A stretch of 64,000 nt of DNA from Bdellovibrionota bacterium. Its GTDB lineage: Bacteria; Bdellovibrionota; Bdellovibrionia; Bdellovibrionales; JAMPXM01. The stretch covers positions 8,262 to 72,261 of the forward strand of contig CAUJGS010000041.1 of the NCBI GenBank assembly GCA_963170185.1, in the 5' to 3' direction. Below are positions 3,609 through 63,195 of this stretch, in pieces (the stretch's first letter is position 1; each line of letters begins with the position of its first letter). The notes beneath the pieces were generated by a model that was given only the letters and a program-made list of their open reading frames with translations, ran no database searches and was not told the DNA's origin. The translations under genes and the position numbers were made by a program.

Positions 3609-4151
3609 TTAAGGAAGGCCCGCTTGGTCTTTGAATTCGCGCAAGATTTGCGCGGGTGTTTTGCACGTGCTTGGGTTCTCGGGCATATTCGGCGGGCCTT
3701 TGGCGACTTCAGCAAGTTTCACGCGAACCTCTGCCGACACCTTGTCGTCGAGGTTTGAGATCGAACGGTACACCAGGCGTTTCACGGGTGCTGTCGGCGA
3801 CGCTTGGTAGTCTTTGAGTTCGAGCATGATCTTTGTCGGCGATCCGAATGGAACACCGTGAGTCACGCAACCAGTAGCTGGGTCGCGACGGATTTGAATG
3901 CCGTTGAATTCTGTCACCAACATAACAGCGCTATCGCCGATGCAGTCGACACGAACCGGCTCAACAACGTACTTGTCGATATCGTTGGCCGAAGCCAGGA
4001 ACGCCAGCGTTTCGACATAGTTGTTTGCCGTCCATTGACCGTTTTTCGCTGGGACCAGTGGTTTTAGCTGGGGCATGAGTTCCAGGAGTCCTGCGATCGA
4101 AGAGTGCCAGCTGATGTAGTCTGGATGGATTTGCTCGAGTGGATATCGCAC
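3609..4151 (-). CDS. hypothetical protein; probably the C-terminal segment of a frameshift-split gene
   Basis: 180-aa ORF with protein-like composition from its first codon (GTG at 4151, TAA immediately upstream in frame). It overlaps the 3' end of ORF 4064..5239 by 88 nt in another frame. Confidence 0.5.
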   Translation of the reverse strand: MRYPLEQIHPDYISWHSSIAGLLELMPQLKPLVPAKNGQWTANNYVETLAFLASANDIDKYVVEPVRVDCIGDSAVMLVTEFNGIQIRRDPATGCVTHGVPFGSPTKIMLELKDYQASPTAPVKRLVYRSISNLDDKVSAEVRVKLAEVAKGPPNMPENPSTCKTPAQILREFKDQAGLP

Positions 4152-5107
4152 TTAAGGTCTTCGACGCCAATCGCCGGATAACCAGGAGTTTTTCGAAACT
4201 GTCGATTGAACTCTGTTTCCGACTTAAGCCAGGTTCCTTCGCGCACCAAGCCGCCCGCAAATTTCCAGTGATTGATCTCGGTTTGAAGAATCAAGGTGAT
4301 CGACTCGGTTTGCGGGAATCGTCGCTCAGGCGGCAAGGCAGCAGATTGAAAACCACGTTCGGTGGCACTTCGCAGCAGTGCACGTACGTGATCGGCAAGT
4401 GTCGTCTTGCCGAGTGATGCGATTTCGCTGATGAGTCCTGGGTGAGGCCCGAGCGCTTTACCGAATGTCTCGGTGCCGTACTGAGTCTCGCTCAGATCTT
4501 GAAGTATTTTGAGATCTTCAATGGCCGCTTGAAGCTCGGCTGAGTCGAGATTGACCAGAATATGAATAGCTGTGGGGAGAGCGATGCCAAAGAGATTGAA
4601 AGGCTGTGTAACAAGTCGGAGACGCGGTTGGCAGCCGGGGTCTCGTGTGAGGAGAAGTGTTGATGGGAGACCGATGTGACTTTCTTTTTTTATGCGAATG
4701 ACTTCGCTACAGTCTTCGAATCGAAAAGATGTCAGTTTCCAGCGACGAAAATCTGTGATGAACCGTGAGTCGACATAAGGCAGATCCGCGAAGTCAGGAG
4801 AGTTCGCCGCCGCTTTGGGATACTCGAAGCGAAGGACCTGTTCAAAAATCTCTTCGTCAAGAACGCCTAGTTCTTGAATGGAAATAGCCGGATGTAACCC
4901 ATGTGGACCCACGGGTAAAAGCACGCTGACGTCGTTGACGTCCAGGCCCCTTGTCGCTAAGCCGCGCGCCTTTGCGGAATACACCTGCGAAGCAGCCCAT
5001 GTGGTAAGCGAAAGCGCAATAAGCAGGGTGATGCTGGCGACGGTTTGCGCATAACGCACAAGTGGCCGCAGCGGCTTTTTTGTTCGAGCATTCATACGCG
5101 CTCTCAT
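4064..5107 (-). CDS. hypothetical exported protein (N-terminal segment of a possibly split gene)
   Basis: An internal ATG (5107 or 5095) gives MRARMNARTKKPLRPLVRYAQTVASITLLIALSLTTWAASQ, a signal/anchor sequence. The last ~25 codons after ...IGVEDLK look like out-of-frame read-through. Confidence 0.55.
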   Translation of the reverse strand: MRARMNARTKKPLRPLVRYAQTVASITLLIALSLTTWAASQVYSAKARGLATRGLDVNDVSVLLPVGPHGLHPAISIQELGVLDEEIFEQVLRFEYPKAAANSPDFADLPYVDSRFITDFRRWKLTSFRFEDCSEVIRIKKESHIGLPSTLLLTRDPGCQPRLRLVTQPFNLFGIALPTAIHILVNLDSAELQAAIEDLKILQDLSETQYGTETFGKALGPHPGLISEIASLGKTTLADHVRALLRSATERGFQSAALPPERRFPQTESITLILQTEINHWKFAGGLVREGTWLKSETEFNRQFRKTPGYPAIGVEDLKCDIHSSKSIQTTSAGTLRSQDSWNSCPS

Positions 5108-7355: not shown

Positions 7356-7979
7356 TCATTGTTTTCCTAAAGGAGCGCTGATCTTTTTTCGGATGTCTTT
7401 TCGAACTTCGAGCGAAATGACTTCCGGAGTGACGATGGGTGTCTGGCCGTCAGCTTCGAAGAACGGTGAGGGGGACTTTTTCCCGAGAATGAGTCCCTTA
7501 AGGAGAAAGGGAGCGACGAACACGATGTCGCGAAGACCCATCTTTTGGGAAGCGTCTTTGGGTGGCTCGCCGTGGGCAAACTTCGCCATGATCCGACTTT
7601 TGACCTGGCCAAAGTTTCGCTCGACGAAACCGACTTCTCCGAAGTTGTAGAGATGAGGACTGAGGCCCGCCCAAGGGGCGCCAAGCATCAAGTTTGCGAC
7701 AGGTGTTTTACAGCAAACTGTCGAAAAGCGATAAAGACCTTTTGGCGAAAGCCGCGTGCAGCGAAGCTGTTCGCGTCCGGCCATGAATTTGATGGCACTT
7801 GGAAACGTGGGAATGACTTCGGTTCCGCCGTTTTGATCGAGCAGTTCGGCTCGCCCAATGTGATGAAGAAACGACTGGCAGTCGTCACAGTAGCAGACGG
7901 CTCGACCAGCTGTGGAAGCCTTGACGTCTATGACCTCAGCCTGAAACTTTCCGCACTCGCATCGCACTTTCGCAGTCAT
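7356..7979 (-). CDS. Cys-rich zinc-binding protein, GFA/CENP-V-like (DUF6151-like)
   Basis: 207 aa. Cys clusters: MTAKVRCECGKFQ, CYCDDCQSF, TVCCKTP. SD-like GAGGAAC lies before the ATG. Confidence 0.6.
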   Translation of the reverse strand: MTAKVRCECGKFQAEVIDVKASTAGRAVCYCDDCQSFLHHIGRAELLDQNGGTEVIPTFPSAIKFMAGREQLRCTRLSPKGLYRFSTVCCKTPVANLMLGAPWAGLSPHLYNFGEVGFVERNFGQVKSRIMAKFAHGEPPKDASQKMGLRDIVFVAPFLLKGLILGKKSPSPFFEADGQTPIVTPEVISLEVRKDIRKKISAPLGKQ

Positions 7980-8106: not shown

Positions 8107-8706
8107 TTAGTCAGGCATTTCTCTTAAGCTCTTCTCGATTTCGATCCAGGCTCGCGCTTCGCGTCGGTTTGCACCGTTGCCCTCAAGCTGATTAAGACGA
8201 ATATAGTCACGAAGACCAAGTACCGCTCGCCAGCTTTCTACAATCCGCGTGAATGGACGATGGTCCCAAAAACGGAGCCTCTCTCGAGAATTCGACGACA
8301 CGTTACTGTCGGTTTGCCAACGTGTTCGTCCAGTCACGGCCTGTGCGATCGCACCAGTGATTGCGCGAATGAATCTTGCGTACGCAAAGCGATTCCCTAG
8401 CTTGATATGCAGGTGAAGGTGATTTCCGACATTCGCCATCGAAAGCACACGGACGCCGTTGGTGCGCGCAAATCGGAGAACGATGTTCGTCACGCGTCTG
8501 CGATGGCGGGTGTGTCGAAGTGACCACTCGCCCTTGGCGAGCGAAGATCGCAAGACCAGATGCATGGTTTGGCGAGTGGCAAGTGGCCTTGCGCCTCGGC
8601 CGGCGCGAGTTTTTCGAAGTTCACCACCATATGCGCTCTTTTCTCGTTTCAGCATGGCGAGCTGAGGTGAGCGAGGGGAGTTGCGTTTTGGTGGGTTCTT
8701 GCGCAT
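8107..8706 (-). CDS. IS200/IS605-type Y1 (HUH) transposase-like protein, RAYT-like, copy 1
   Basis: HUH motif NHLHLHIK; Tyr motif RDYIRLNQ (compare YIxxNP of RAYTs); beta-strand MHLVLRS. Start at the internal ATG 8706 by homology with copy 2. Paralog at 62166..62942. Confidence 0.6.
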   Translation of the reverse strand: MRKNPPKRNSPRSPQLAMLKREKSAYGGELRKTRAGRGARPLATRQTMHLVLRSSLAKGEWSLRHTRHRRRVTNIVLRFARTNGVRVLSMANVGNHLHLHIKLGNRFAYARFIRAITGAIAQAVTGRTRWQTDSNVSSNSRERLRFWDHRPFTRIVESWRAVLGLRDYIRLNQLEGNGANRREARAWIEIEKSLREMPD

Positions 8707-8712
8707 GCGTTT

Positions 8713-8741
8713 CTTGTATGTGACCGATGGTATAGAGTCAA
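8713..8741 (-). promoter_or_regulatory. putative sigma70-type promoter of RAYT-like copy 1
   Basis: Minus strand reads TTGACT (8741-8736), 17 nt, TACAAG (8718-8713), with ATG 7 nt further on. The geometry and -35 are identical to copy 2, but the -10 is weak. Confidence 0.3.
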
Positions 8742-8931
8742 CCAAGAGAGTCTGGCTAGACTATTAGGACGTGGGCAAAGAACGAGCTGGGAGGGCGTGT
8801 CGAAGCCGAATTGGTGATCACGGCGAGGCGAGGTATGGAGGCGAAAATGGTGCGCTATCGAGGAACGCGCGCCTACGGCCATCGAAACGTTTACGATCGC
8901 CCGCGCCTCCGAACGCGCCATCGCGCGCGCG

Positions 8932-12097: not shown

Positions 12098-13240
12098 ATG
12101 ATGAATTCAACTCAAATTCCAAAGTCTCAGTCGCTTGAAATCGAAATGGCAGCCATCTGGGCGCGTCAGGCTGCACGAGCCGCGTCGGGCGGTAACGCTC
12201 AGCCATGGGTCGTGAAGATAGAGCGTTTGTCTGACAATCGCCTTTTGTTTCGCTTAGGAATAGACTCTCGCTACTCTTGTCGGCCTTCGCCAATGGATGT
12301 CGATGGCAAGGCGGCGCTGATGGCGCTGGGGTGTTATGCGGTTTATGTCGAAGCTTTTGCGGCACTTGCCGGTTTCGAAGTTCAAAGTCGGTCTTTGGCG
12401 GCGGGGGAAACCGCGTGGGAGACAGAGGTCTCTCTGGTGTTTCGTCCGGTTGTTGGTGCGCGCAAGACGAAGTATTCCGAACAAGCGTTGCAGCAGCGTT
12501 GGACCGACCGTCGGGTTTATGAGACGGCGCCCTGTCCTCCTGATTTGCAGCGACGCATGCAAGATGTTTTAAAAGACTACGGCGGTATCCGCGCGACTTC
12601 GGTTCGCTCACGTATTGAGGCCGCAATCGGACCGTTAAGAAAACTCGAAGCCTTGCGCTGGAAAAACAAAAAATTTCGCGACTCGCTTTTTGAGGAGATC
12701 GACTTTTCCAGCGGCAAGGACGCTGGGGCGAGTAGGAAAATTCCCGCCTCACAACTGGGGGTTGAGGGGTTTGATCTTTTATTTTTGCGCTTGATGCACG
12801 GGTATCCCGCTTTGCGCACGATTTTAAGTATGGGTGGGTCGGAGATCGTCGCAAGAAAAACAGTGCCTCGCTTGCTTCGAGCTTCGTCGGGGGTTTGGTT
12901 TCTTCAGGCCGAAGTGAAATCAAACGCGGCCGTGTTTGATTTGGGAAGGTGCTTTCAGGAGCTATGGCTTGTCGTGAACGATTACGGCTATTCCTTTCAG
13001 CCCATAGGACTGCCTTTGGTGGCACTTTCTTATTGGAGCGGCGACAGTTGCGGGATCGGTCAATCGCCCGCGCAGACCGGTGTCGTGCGGGAGGTAACAG
13101 GGGTGCTTCGGGAGAAATTCGACTTAGACTTAAAAGAACTTGTTCTGGGCTTTCGCTTTGGCGCGACGAAAATCTCGCAAAGTGTTTCGTCAAGACTGAG
13201 CCCGCGCGCGGAACCGCAAATCGAAAGCAGCAAAACCTGA
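12098..13240 (+). CDS. tandem nitroreductase-like (Acg-family-like) FMN-binding protein
   Basis: Start at ATGATG 12098. Motif AARAASGGNAQPWVV resembles the nitroreductase SxxNxQPW signature. The ~380-aa length fits a two-lobed Acg-type protein. Confidence 0.6.
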   Translation: MMNSTQIPKSQSLEIEMAAIWARQAARAASGGNAQPWVVKIERLSDNRLLFRLGIDSRYSCRPSPMDVDGKAALMALGCYAVYVEAFAALAGFEVQSRSLAAGETAWETEVSLVFRPVVGARKTKYSEQALQQRWTDRRVYETAPCPPDLQRRMQDVLKDYGGIRATSVRSRIEAAIGPLRKLEALRWKNKKFRDSLFEEIDFSSGKDAGASRKIPASQLGVEGFDLLFLRLMHGYPALRTILSMGGSEIVARKTVPRLLRASSGVWFLQAEVKSNAAVFDLGRCFQELWLVVNDYGYSFQPIGLPLVALSYWSGDSCGIGQSPAQTGVVREVTGVLREKFDLDLKELVLGFRFGATKISQSVSSRLSPRAEPQIESSKT

Positions 13241-13380
13241 AGGACACAGCGACATATCCCGAATCTTTCGATGCCCCTGCATCGAAAGCAGCGAAGTCCG
13301 AAGGACGCAGCGACATATTCCAATCTTTCGATGCCCCTGCATCGAAAGCAGCGAAGTCCGAAGGACGCAGCGACATATTA
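13221..13380 (-). repeat. 2.7 tandem copies of a 60-bp two-hairpin element (family locus A)
   Basis: 13261-13320 and 13321-13380 differ at 2 positions; 13221-13260 is a degenerate partial copy. Each unit holds a perfect 10-bp stem (CTTTCGATGC/GCATCGAAAG, 4-nt loop) plus a small GTCC/GGAC hairpin. Confidence 0.95.
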
Positions 13381-42951: not shown

Positions 42952-43028
<77 letters not shown>

Positions 43029-54644: not shown

Positions 54645-54733
54645 GAGGGTGCGGTTCGTAGCGACACCCCTCAAATCTCGCCGCGCCACTGCACGGCGAG
54701 CAGCTTAGGGCGAAGCCCTAAGCGACACCCTTA
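54645..54733 (-). repeat. two-hairpin repeat family, locus D (one full copy plus a partial second copy)
   Basis: Minus strand reads TAAGGGTGTCGCT-TAGGGC TTC GCCCTA-A-GCTG-CTCGCCGTGC AGTG GCGCGGCGAG-ATTTGA, then GGGGTGTCGCTACGAACCGCACCCTC. Confidence 0.85.
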
Positions 54734-62103: not shown

Positions 62104-62131
62104 CGACTGGCGACTGGCGACTGGCGACTGG
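62104..62131. repeat. 4 x 7-bp perfect tandem repeat (CGACTGG)
   Basis: cgactgg cgactgg cgactgg cgactgg lies between the convergent MutT-like and RAYT-like genes. Confidence 0.95.
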
Positions 62132-62165
62132 CAGGTGGCGGCTGCATTCGGAGTTCGGCACGCCA

Positions 62166-62942
62166 TCATATTCGTGACTCGGGTTTTCTTGGGTCGGATC
62201 TTTTTAGGTCGGATATTCTTAGCACTGGTCTTCGCGTCTTGCTTTCTAGCCAAGCCCGCGCCTCTAGGCGACTGACGCCGAAACCTTCGAGTTGGTTGAT
62301 GCGAACATAATCGCGCATGTTGAGAACCGCGCGCCAGCTCTCGATGATTCTCGTGAATGGGCGGTAGTCCCAAAACTGCAACTTGGCTGACCCGACATTT
62401 CTCGACTGGTTGTTTTGCCAGCGCGTGCGTCCGGTTACAGCTTGTGCGATGGCGCCGGTTACGGCTCGGATGAACCCGGCGTAGGAATGGCGATTTCCAA
62501 GTTTGATGTGAAGATGCAGATGATTTCCGACGTTGGCCATCGACAAGATACGCACGCCGTTTTTGAGCGCAAATCGTTTGATGATGGCCCCCACGCGGTT
62601 GCGATTCTTCGGGTGGCGGAACGACCATTCTCCCTTTGCTTTTGTCGAGCGCAGCACGAGGTGCATGCTGTGCCTTGTTGCGAGCGGCCTGGCTGTAGAG
62701 CGGCCCTCGCGAGTGTTGCGAAGCTCGCCACCATACGCACTTCTTTGTCGTTTTATCAGGGTCAGTTGCGGCGAACGTGTAGCTGGCCGCGTGACCGGCT
62801 GTGTAGCTGGCCGTGCGAATGGCCGTGCAACTGATGGCGGCCGCGTAGCTGGCGGTGGCTGTGTAGCCAAGGAGGATGTTGGTCGGTCTTTCACTCGTTT
62901 TGACTGCGGGATTGAGCGGGTAGCGGCTTTTCCTGATCGCAT
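62166..62942 (-). CDS. IS200/IS605-type Y1 (HUH) transposase-like protein, RAYT-like, copy 2
   Basis: Same motifs as copy 1 (NHLHLHIK, RDYVRINQ). About three quarters identical to copy 1 by hand alignment over the core. Has an extra Pro/Thr/Arg/Ala-rich N-terminal ~45 aa. Confidence 0.6.
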   Translation of the reverse strand: MRSGKAATRSIPQSKRVKDRPTSSLATQPPPATRPPSVARPFARPATQPVTRPATRSPQLTLIKRQRSAYGGELRNTREGRSTARPLATRHSMHLVLRSTKAKGEWSFRHPKNRNRVGAIIKRFALKNGVRILSMANVGNHLHLHIKLGNRHSYAGFIRAVTGAIAQAVTGRTRWQNNQSRNVGSAKLQFWDYRPFTRIIESWRAVLNMRDYVRINQLEGFGVSRLEARAWLESKTRRPVLRISDLKRSDPRKPESRI

Positions 62943-62948
62943 CCGCGA

Positions 62949-62977
62949 AATATATGTGACCGATGGTAGAGAGTCAA
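62949..62977 (-). promoter_or_regulatory. putative sigma70 promoter of RAYT-like copy 2 (leaderless geometry)
   Basis: Minus strand reads TTGACT (62977-62972), 17 nt, TATATT (62954-62949). ATG 62942 begins 7 nt after the -10 hexamer. Confidence 0.45.
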
Positions 62978-63120
62978 TGAAAAAGCAATGTCTGACGATA
63001 GGGAAAGTGAGTGGCGGAGAAGGGGAGGGCGCCGAGTCGTATGGAGACGGTTATGGAGGAGGGTATAGAGGAGGGTATGGAGACGCTTGCAGAGGTGCTG
63101 GCGGAGAGGGCTATGGAAAT

Positions 63121-63165
63121 GGTTGCGGAGGAGGTGATGGTTGCGGAGGAGGTGATGGAGGTGAT
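63121..63165 (+). repeat. 18-bp tandem repeat (GGTTGCGGAGGAGGTGAT x2 plus a half unit) inside a G-rich tract
   Basis: 63121-63138 and 63139-63156 are identical, followed by GGAGGTGAT. The surrounding 62990-63190 is strongly purine/G-rich on the plus strand. Confidence 0.9.
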
Positions 63166-63195
63166 GGACCGGCTGTTGCGGGGGGGGCGTGAGGA

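Follow-up and report, generated by a model that had tools for sequence, protein, structure and literature searches.

What keeps two small, solo transposase-like genes in a bacterial chromosome, and why does the same short sequence stand directly in front of each? The question is raised by a 64,000-nt stretch of DNA from a Bdellovibrionota bacterium (positions 8,262 to 72,261 of contig CAUJGS010000041.1, assembly GCA_963170185.1), referred to here as the window. An earlier note, made from its letters alone, had described two paralogous HUH genes at 8107..8706 (copy 1) and 62166..62942 (copy 2), and had called them domesticated, single-copy REP-associated tyrosine transposases (RAYTs) rather than an active insertion sequence (IS). 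Both open reading frames (ORFs) are confirmed, on the minus strand. The two genes are old paralogues in a clade of solo Y1 HUH single-stranded DNA (ssDNA) endonuclease genes with the IS200/RAYT fold, and the most interesting feature of the family is a box, conserved throughout it, that is embedded in the promoter. Our joint reading, which we favour with modest confidence, is that these are fixed, vertically inherited and host-maintained genes with a leaderless promoter, in which the embedded box would serve as an operator.

The upstream homology described in the earlier note is borne out in its nearest part. A 25-nt block, TTGACTCT(A/C)TACCATCGGTCACATA, is common to the two 5′ flanks and identical at 24 of its 25 positions (96%, BLASTN); it falls in the segments directly 5′ of both ATGs (8702-8741 and 62938-62977; repeat family D9). 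The other blocks listed there, GTCTG and GGGAGGGCG, are present in both flanks but at different offsets, are left unaligned by MAFFT and BLASTN, and are not conserved even in an orthologue 91% identical to copy 1, and are therefore treated as chance. What was missed is that the common flank is more than a promoter, having as its core a box that is invariant across the family and independent of the promoter register. Relatives were taken from contigs of a collection with one genome per species, in which 160 stretches encode a relative, and 80 of these loci, ~6.5 kb each, were kept. Anchored on the common block, 68 loci give the motif ttTATACC-W-TCG-k-TCAC, with information content highest over ACC, TCG and TCAC and higher across the box than at the flanking promoter hexamers. 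The exact 12-mer ACC[AT]TCG[GTC]TCAC lies 5′ of the gene and on the gene strand at 54 of the 80 loci, where the calculated chance expectation is ~0.3 in ~400 kb, and within the window it occurs only at the two genes. In copy 1 orthologues the flank has diverged everywhere except at the box, the -35 and the ATGCG start, which are invariant.

The frame of the box relative to the gene takes all three values, often with stop codons between the two, and the box is therefore a DNA-level element and not coding sequence. The same varying frame and intervening stops rule out an upstream-extended ORF, which in copy 1 is open to a TTG at 8745. The box was also considered as one of two terminal repeats and rejected, the 3′ regions matching controls in a position weight matrix (PWM) scan (p = 0.87). 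Compared by eye with consensus sequences, it gave no convincing match to FliA, extracytoplasmic function (ECF) sigma factor, sigma-54, DnaA-box or CtrA sites. A metagenome scan with the 16-mer TATACCWTCGKTCACA returned at least 120 matches, mostly chance or in unrelated conserved genes; among the matches listed, six precede a family gene and one more (L186) ends at the contig end, and they have no bearing on boxes without a gene in the Bdellovibrionales.

The box sits in a promoter, and it does so in two registers. The earlier note had read, in both copies, a TTGACT, a 17-nt spacer and a -10 with the ATG close behind, and these elements are found as described (Table 1), with support from their conservation in other family members. 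The spacing between the box and the first in-frame start is bimodal. In class a (~33 loci) the start lies 0-5 nt after the box and a -35-like hexamer 21-23 nt before it, so that the box covers the -10 to +1 region. In class b (~18 loci, both window copies included) the start lies 13-15 nt after the box, the -35-like hexamer is at -7 or -8, and the box fills the spacer. In both classes the ATG follows a -10-like hexamer by 6-9 nt, and the two are interspersed on a neighbour-joining protein tree. A consensus promoter scan called the copy 2 promoter, with 10 of 12 consensus matches. Orthologues of copy 1 have an equivalent -10 hexamer, TAnAAn, and their ATGCG start neither changes nor shifts relative to the promoter, which supports the ATG at 8706 as the start of copy 1. 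A Shine-Dalgarno-like sequence precedes neither ATG, whereas a GAGGA stands in front of the ATG of the neighbouring gene, 7356..7979. The conserved promoter-to-ATG geometry supports mRNAs that would be leaderless or nearly leaderless; a literature search on leaderless genes and Bdellovibrio found none mapped for the phylum.

Several further observations concern the box and its surroundings. Local multiplication of the box, in a manner like REP elements or bacterial interspersed mosaic elements (BIMEs), is seen in some genomes. Locus L043 has an inverted pair, at 4054-4068 (+) and 4229-4242 (-), that encloses ~170 nt with a terminator-like hairpin. L021 carries boxes at 2591 and 2749 (+) in tandem units of ~79 nt, a third unit whose box has one mismatch, and an inverted copy at 2877 (-). 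L073 has five direct copies, at 1232, 1967, 2601, 2813 and 2841. At L158:60-160 a class b-type -35, box and -10 (TTGATTTTATACCTTCGGTCACATACAAA) stand with no family gene within 900 nt downstream; what follows is an unrelated long ORF on the opposite strand, so the locus, where the family gene may have been displaced by insertion, is uninformative on a box without a gene. Separately, a motif of ~25 nt, GTTGCACTTCGGACTTGAATCCGCC, which includes a near-palindrome centred on TTCGAA, lies upstream of family genes in four metagenome-assembled genomes (MAGs), at L017:117, L029:2984, L044:2842, L048:2841, L053:1091, L056:2681 and L070:2901. Every occurrence is on the gene strand and 25-290 nt upstream of the box, and the rest of those loci has none; ARAGORN found no tRNA of which it could be part.

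Both proteins are members of the Y1 HUH superfamily. They are 69% identical over 187 aa (BLASTP) and 73% identical over a conserved core of 164 aa, in agreement with the three quarters over ~165 aa that had been estimated by hand, and the HUH motif NHLHLHIK and the tyrosine motif RDY(I/V)R(L/I)NQ are present in each. The Pfam profile Y1_Tnp (PF01797, cutoff 23) is passed narrowly, with 24.9 bits for copy 1 and 26.3 bits for copy 2. Two NCBIfam models are failed widely by both: the RAYT equivalog NF047646 (REP_Tyr_transpos), which is nevertheless the best NCBIfam match of either copy, scores 22.3 and 23.0 bits (cutoff 80), and NF033573 (transpos_IS200) scores 17.1 and 18.8 bits (cutoff 55). An AlphaFold2 model built from an alignment of 39 family sequences (mean predicted local distance difference test score, pLDDT, 78.5) places Tyr168 within a predicted C-terminal helix, residues 159-176. 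The top 30 Foldseek matches in the Protein Data Bank (PDB) are all TnpA of IS608, ISDra2, IS200 or Sulfolobus, the putative Deinococcus radiodurans transposase dr_0177, or the Escherichia coli RAYT 4er8, and 4er8 gives the tightest superposition, with a root-mean-square deviation (rmsd) of 2.2 Å and a template modelling (TM) score of 0.50-0.59. In alignments the family HxH falls on the catalytic HxH of IS608 and ISDra2 TnpA; sequence similarity to solved structures is marginal (E ~0.03 against PDB chains).

Across the 39 sequences His96, His98, Tyr168 and Asn172 are invariant, as is a FWD.RP block. Much of a basic N-terminal arm of ~45 aa, SAYGGELxKTRxGR..RPL, a segment covered by neither the Pfam nor the NCBIfam matches, is invariant as well. 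The profile score above cutoff, the match in fold to TnpA and RAYT structures and the invariant catalytic residues uphold the Y1 HUH identity, and the proteins form a remote clade that is neither standard RAYT nor standard IS200 TnpA. With the HUH metal site and the nucleophilic tyrosine intact, the proteins are probably catalytically active, to judge by residue invariance and the alignment to the IS608 and ISDra2 catalytic HxH. The N-terminal linker of copy 2 is low-complexity, repetitive and rich in Pro, Thr and Arg, and is ~50-60 aa longer than that of copy 1; in the relatives at L001 and L085 the linkers likewise vary in length after an identical Met-Arg start. The repetitive part spans residues ~25-60 (within 62760-62870), and other simple repeats surround copy 2, namely four CGACTGG units just 3′ of the gene (62104-62132) and G-rich 12- and 18-nt tandem repeats 5′ of its promoter (63039-63168).

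A protein search returned 870 homologues, and wherever a source names an organism the name is Bdellovibrionales, Bdellovibrionota or Oligoflexia. MAGs supplied all 80 kept loci, and nearly all of them carry one of these labels. In the Joint Genome Institute (JGI) annotation many members are called ‘REP element-mobilizing transposase RayT’, a COG-derived label. Among the 80 loci, Jr-03apr18-63 and GFS_7509 each contribute 7 copies and GFS_13375 contributes 6, and the description ‘single-copy’ is therefore wrong, the window itself holding two. Paralogues group by genome in some MAGs and are scattered over the tree in others. Neither the clade nor its box turned up in full-text literature searches that combined RAYT or IS200 with Bdellovibrio, and PMC6006769 does not mention Bdellovibrio.

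The genes are held at their chromosomal sites. The DUF6151 and PQQ-propeller neighbours of copy 1 are retained beside orthologues whose proteins are 91% and 77% identical to it, and an identical copy 2 protein lies on two other contigs between TrmO and NUDIX genes, as in the window; synteny held out to a synonymous divergence (dS) of ~1.35. The ratio of nonsynonymous to synonymous divergence (dN/dS, Nei-Gojobori) was calculated for the eleven orthologue or within-genome paralogue pairs with estimable dS, and is 0.02-0.11 in all but one of them (L002/L003, 0.24). The closest paralogue pairs are already at dS ~0.2, and the window pair (W1/W2) is saturated. What these youngest pairs have in common, at sites that are not linked, is limited to a discrete unit of ~600-670 bp. 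Its left edge in L002/L003 falls 3 nt before the -35 and box, and among the 7 copies of GFS_7509 (~86% identity) homology runs from ~10 nt 5′ of the -35 exactly to the stop codon, so that promoter, box and coding sequence (CDS) are preserved as a unit. Since neutral flanks at dS ~0.2 would still align, the cassette itself has moved. This movement is very rare, and the behaviour is on the whole intermediate between ‘domesticated’ and ‘very slow IS’. For genes that are fixed in the chromosome and under purifying selection of a host-like kind, ‘domesticated’ is a better description than ‘active IS’. To this extent the label given in the earlier note survives; ‘single-copy’ is further contradicted by the moved cassette that recent pairs share, and a strict ‘RAYT’ by the equivalog scores and the lack of flanking REPs.

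The note had also seen neither a tnpB partner nor IS200/IS605-style subterminal hairpins, and here it was right. No neighbouring ORF cluster recurs in more than 3 of 82 loci (the 80 and the two window copies), and therefore no tnpB or other partner is indicated; a PADLOC scan for defence systems gave no match. In the flanks of the two window copies ssDNA folding z-scores range from -0.9 to +0.7 and the best perfect stems are 5 bp, which is background. Family-wide, hairpin stem lengths in the flanks equal those of controls, except for one lineage-specific upstream hairpin in the MAG Jr-03apr18-63. This perfect hairpin, TCTTCACGCCG-CGGA-CGGCGTGAAGA, has an 11-bp stem identical in all five aligned copies (L026, L029, L040, L055 and L068) and lies ~95 nt upstream of the box (~180 nt in L029). 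The stop codon, which lies within a small palindrome, GGCCG-CGAAGTT-CGGCC-TAG, marks the end of homology between the copies of this MAG. The hairpin has the look of an IS200-like left end and is confined to that lineage.

From these results a mechanism can be proposed. The genes occupy fixed chromosomal sites, pass vertically and are under strong purifying selection. Lacking a partner gene, REPs and terminal hairpins, they behave like genes maintained by the host, and their spread, in the form of a compact promoter-plus-gene cassette (~600-670 bp), is very rare. Expression would be driven by a sigma-70-type promoter, with 6-9 nt between the end of its -10 and the start codon, and the conserved geometry predicts a leaderless or nearly leaderless mRNA. 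Embedded in this promoter is the family-specific box of 12-15 nt, TATACC-W-TCG-N-TCAC, whose sequence is kept whether it falls in the spacer (class b) or over -10 to +1 (class a). The box is most likely a protein-binding operator, and its occupancy would occlude RNA polymerase; a separate binding partner is the best explanation for a sequence that stays invariant although its place in the promoter shifts by ~15 nt, and that departs from the sigma-70 consensus at its conserved bases. Our guess is that the binder would be the HUH protein itself, possibly through the basic N-terminal arm, which would amount to negative autoregulation.

Several observations pull against this proposal. The box lacks dyad symmetry, and such asymmetry is unusual for an operator. 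The extra boxes away from gene starts in L021, L043 and L073 are not predicted by a pure operator. The lineage-specific paralogue clusters (79-99% aa identity in Jr-03apr18-63, ~86% nt identity in GFS_7509) amount to some IS-like behaviour, and at L139:2302-3060 (L192 is the same sequence) a frameshift splits a family copy into ORFs of 136 and 115 aa. This split copy, the sole apparent pseudogene seen, retains an intact class a box with an ATG directly after it. The copy 1 -10, TACAAG, is weak and was missed by the consensus promoter scan because it lacks the final T, and the neighbour-joining tree behind the repeated switching of register is rough.

The main rival, unlikely in our judgement, is a slow IS200-like insertion sequence, in which the promoter-box-gene cassette would be mobile and the box would be the left-end recognition or cleavage site of its transposase. 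It accounts for the several genomes with multiple copies, for the within-genome paralogue clusters, which imply intragenomic spread, and for the discrete unit that the youngest pairs share at unlinked sites; the identical hairpin upstream of the box in the five aligned Jr-03apr18-63 copies, the extra inverted or tandem boxes (L043 and L021, also L073) and the one frameshifted copy point the same way. Yet near-identical copies were not seen, the closest pair being at dS ~0.2, the paralogue dN/dS values are unlike those of decaying IS copies, and synteny is kept to considerable depth (dS ~1.35). The 3′ end has no box-like site by the PWM comparison with controls, and therefore no matching right end; hairpins are absent from the window copies and from most lineages, the transpos_IS200 model is missed by a wide interval, and homology over promoter and CDS only is also expected from selection alone in old duplicates. 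Quite unlikely, in turn, is that the box is a promoter element and nothing else, an unusual -10 plus discriminator or a spacer preference, conserved through promoter function and common descent. The box does always overlap the core promoter, in class a a -10-like hexamer can be seen in TATACC or TACCWT, and homology between old paralogues takes in promoter and CDS together. This explanation has difficulty with class b, where the box is equally invariant within a 17-nt spacer in which sigma-70 makes few base-specific contacts. ACC, TCG and TCAC are, moreover, conserved better than the -35 and -10 hexamers, and on the protein tree loci of the two registers are intermingled.

Very unlikely, by our estimate, is that the box is the enzyme's own single-strand recognition or nicking site rather than an operator. 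The class a box covers ~-12 to +3, the region melted in an open promoter complex, so initiation would expose the substrate, and expression would be linked to a one-ended HUH reaction, in which the promoter-box-gene cassette would be nicked, primed or copied in a rolling-circle-type manner. If true, this would describe a new self-contained Y1 element or host DNA-processing module, hairpin-free and one-ended, with many paralogues in predatory bacteria. We give least credence to classical domesticated RAYTs acting on a dispersed hairpin repeat of REP or REPIN type, such as the two-hairpin repeats of the window, an account that we regard as highly improbable. It is suggested by the JGI ‘RayT’ labels on many members, by REP_Tyr_transpos as the top, sub-threshold NCBIfam match, by the tightness of the 4er8 superposition, and by vertical inheritance and purifying selection that resemble those of the RAYTs described by Bertels et al. 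(2017, PMC5581495); the window does hold a structured two-hairpin repeat with compensatory stem changes. Against it, the equivalog scores of 22-23 bits lie far below the cutoff of 80, no repeat adjoins either gene, the two-hairpin repeat being 4.5-7.4 kb off and absent from 85 family-gene loci, and copy numbers that reach at least 7 per genome compare with 1.3-1.8 per replicon for the RAYT groups (PMC5581495). The operator reading remains the one that we prefer; the positions of the genes, boxes and promoter elements are listed in Table 1.

Table 1. Positions of the two family genes, their boxes and their promoter elements in the window.
Feature	Position	Strand	Description
Copy 1 CDS	8107..8706	minus	199 aa; solo Y1 HUH (IS200/RAYT-fold) protein; HxH at residues 96 and 98, Tyr168
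Copy 1 -10-like TACAAG	8713..8718	minus	17 nt after the -35, 6 nt before ATG 8706; weak, lacks the final T
Copy 1 box TATACCATCGGTCAC	8720..8734	minus	exact 12-mer match; invariant core ACC-W-TCG-N-TCAC
Copy 1 -35-like TTGACT	8736..8741	minus	adjoins the box, class b layout; read directly
Copy 2 CDS	62166..62942	minus	258 aa; same family as copy 1
Copy 2 sigma-70-type promoter	62949..62977	minus	TTGACT (62977-62972), 17 nt with the box, TATATT (62954-62949), 6 nt, ATG 62942
Copy 2 box TCTACCATCGGTCAC	62956..62970	minus	exact 12-mer match; repeat family D9

The two-hairpin repeat had been proposed in the earlier note as a possible substrate of the two proteins. It occurs in the window as four copies at two sites (13227-13375 and 54700-54727), where 0.03 would be expected by chance; the full sites are 13201-13379, with three tandem units of ~60 nt each, and 54674-54731. 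Its unpaired parts, AATCT, GCAGC, a GAAG loop and GCGACA, are conserved, while both stems differ compensatorily between the 13.2-kb and 54.7-kb copies, and it has no match in Rfam. Co-occurrence of repeat and gene was looked for and none was found in the 85 gene loci, which include same-species contigs. In the window the repeats lie more than 4 kb from the genes, and none is adjacent to either, as had been stated. The repeats are thus not supported as the substrate, for want of co-localisation in the window and in these loci. Elsewhere in the window, a tRNA gene at 42952-43025 (+), with 67 bits, is the sole match above an Rfam gathering threshold.

The host role of domesticated Y1 (RAYT-like) transposases without REPs is described as an open question by Bertels et al. 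(2017, PMC5581495), to which the present clade gives unusually clean access: its gene is small and solo, has intact catalytic residues, persists as multiple paralogues under strong purifying selection, and is always accompanied by one short, invariant and non-palindromic box at its promoter. The pairing of gene and box is a defined candidate protein-DNA interaction, and the conserved geometry yields a set of predicted leaderless genes in the phylum. If the box is only an operator, the family would be a tidy example of autoregulation in domesticated transposases; if it is a substrate, it would represent a hairpin-independent mode of Y1 recognition.

How, then, does the family compare with known systems? 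It shares with the IS200/IS605 TnpA proteins (IS608, ISDra2, IS200) membership of Y1_Tnp, the ferredoxin-like HUH fold, the aligned HxH, a tyrosine on the C-terminal helix and the organisation as a small solo tnpA-like gene, and IS200 itself likewise lacks tnpB. It differs from them in the marginal similarity already described (E ~0.03 to PDB chains; NF033573 17-19 bits against 55), in lacking paired subterminal hairpins and near-identical copies while being syntenic and under purifying selection, and in adding the conserved basic N-terminal arm of ~45 aa and the invariant promoter-embedded box. The likeness to RAYT/TnpA-REP proteins (E. coli YafM, PDB 4er8) consists in the best superposition (2.2 Å), a tyrosine motif of the Y(I/V)xxN type and the COG label RayT, together with the vertical inheritance and housekeeping-like selection reported for RAYTs (PMC5581495). 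Unlike a RAYT, the family fails the equivalog model and has no flanking REPs, no associated dispersed hairpin repeat was found for it in the window or the 85 loci, and it reaches at least 7 diverged paralogues per genome.

A further comparison is with the RAYT groups that lack a clear REP association. In Bertels et al. (2017, PMC5581495), RAYT groups average 1.3-1.8 copies per replicon and only Groups 2 and 3 are REP-associated; Groups 1, 4 and 5 lack the very abundant flanking 16-mers that mark those two, Groups 4 and 5 show few duplicates and no plasmid copies, and vertical inheritance applies to RAYTs generally. The pattern of Groups 1, 4 and 5 resembles that of the present family, in a comparison made by description. 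These groups differ from it in averaging fewer than 2 copies per replicon and, in that account (PMC5581495), in that no promoter box is described for them. The gene-linked cis element, a hairpin with a GTAG head in RAYT/TnpA-REP systems, is in the present family a single, non-palindromic 5′ box.

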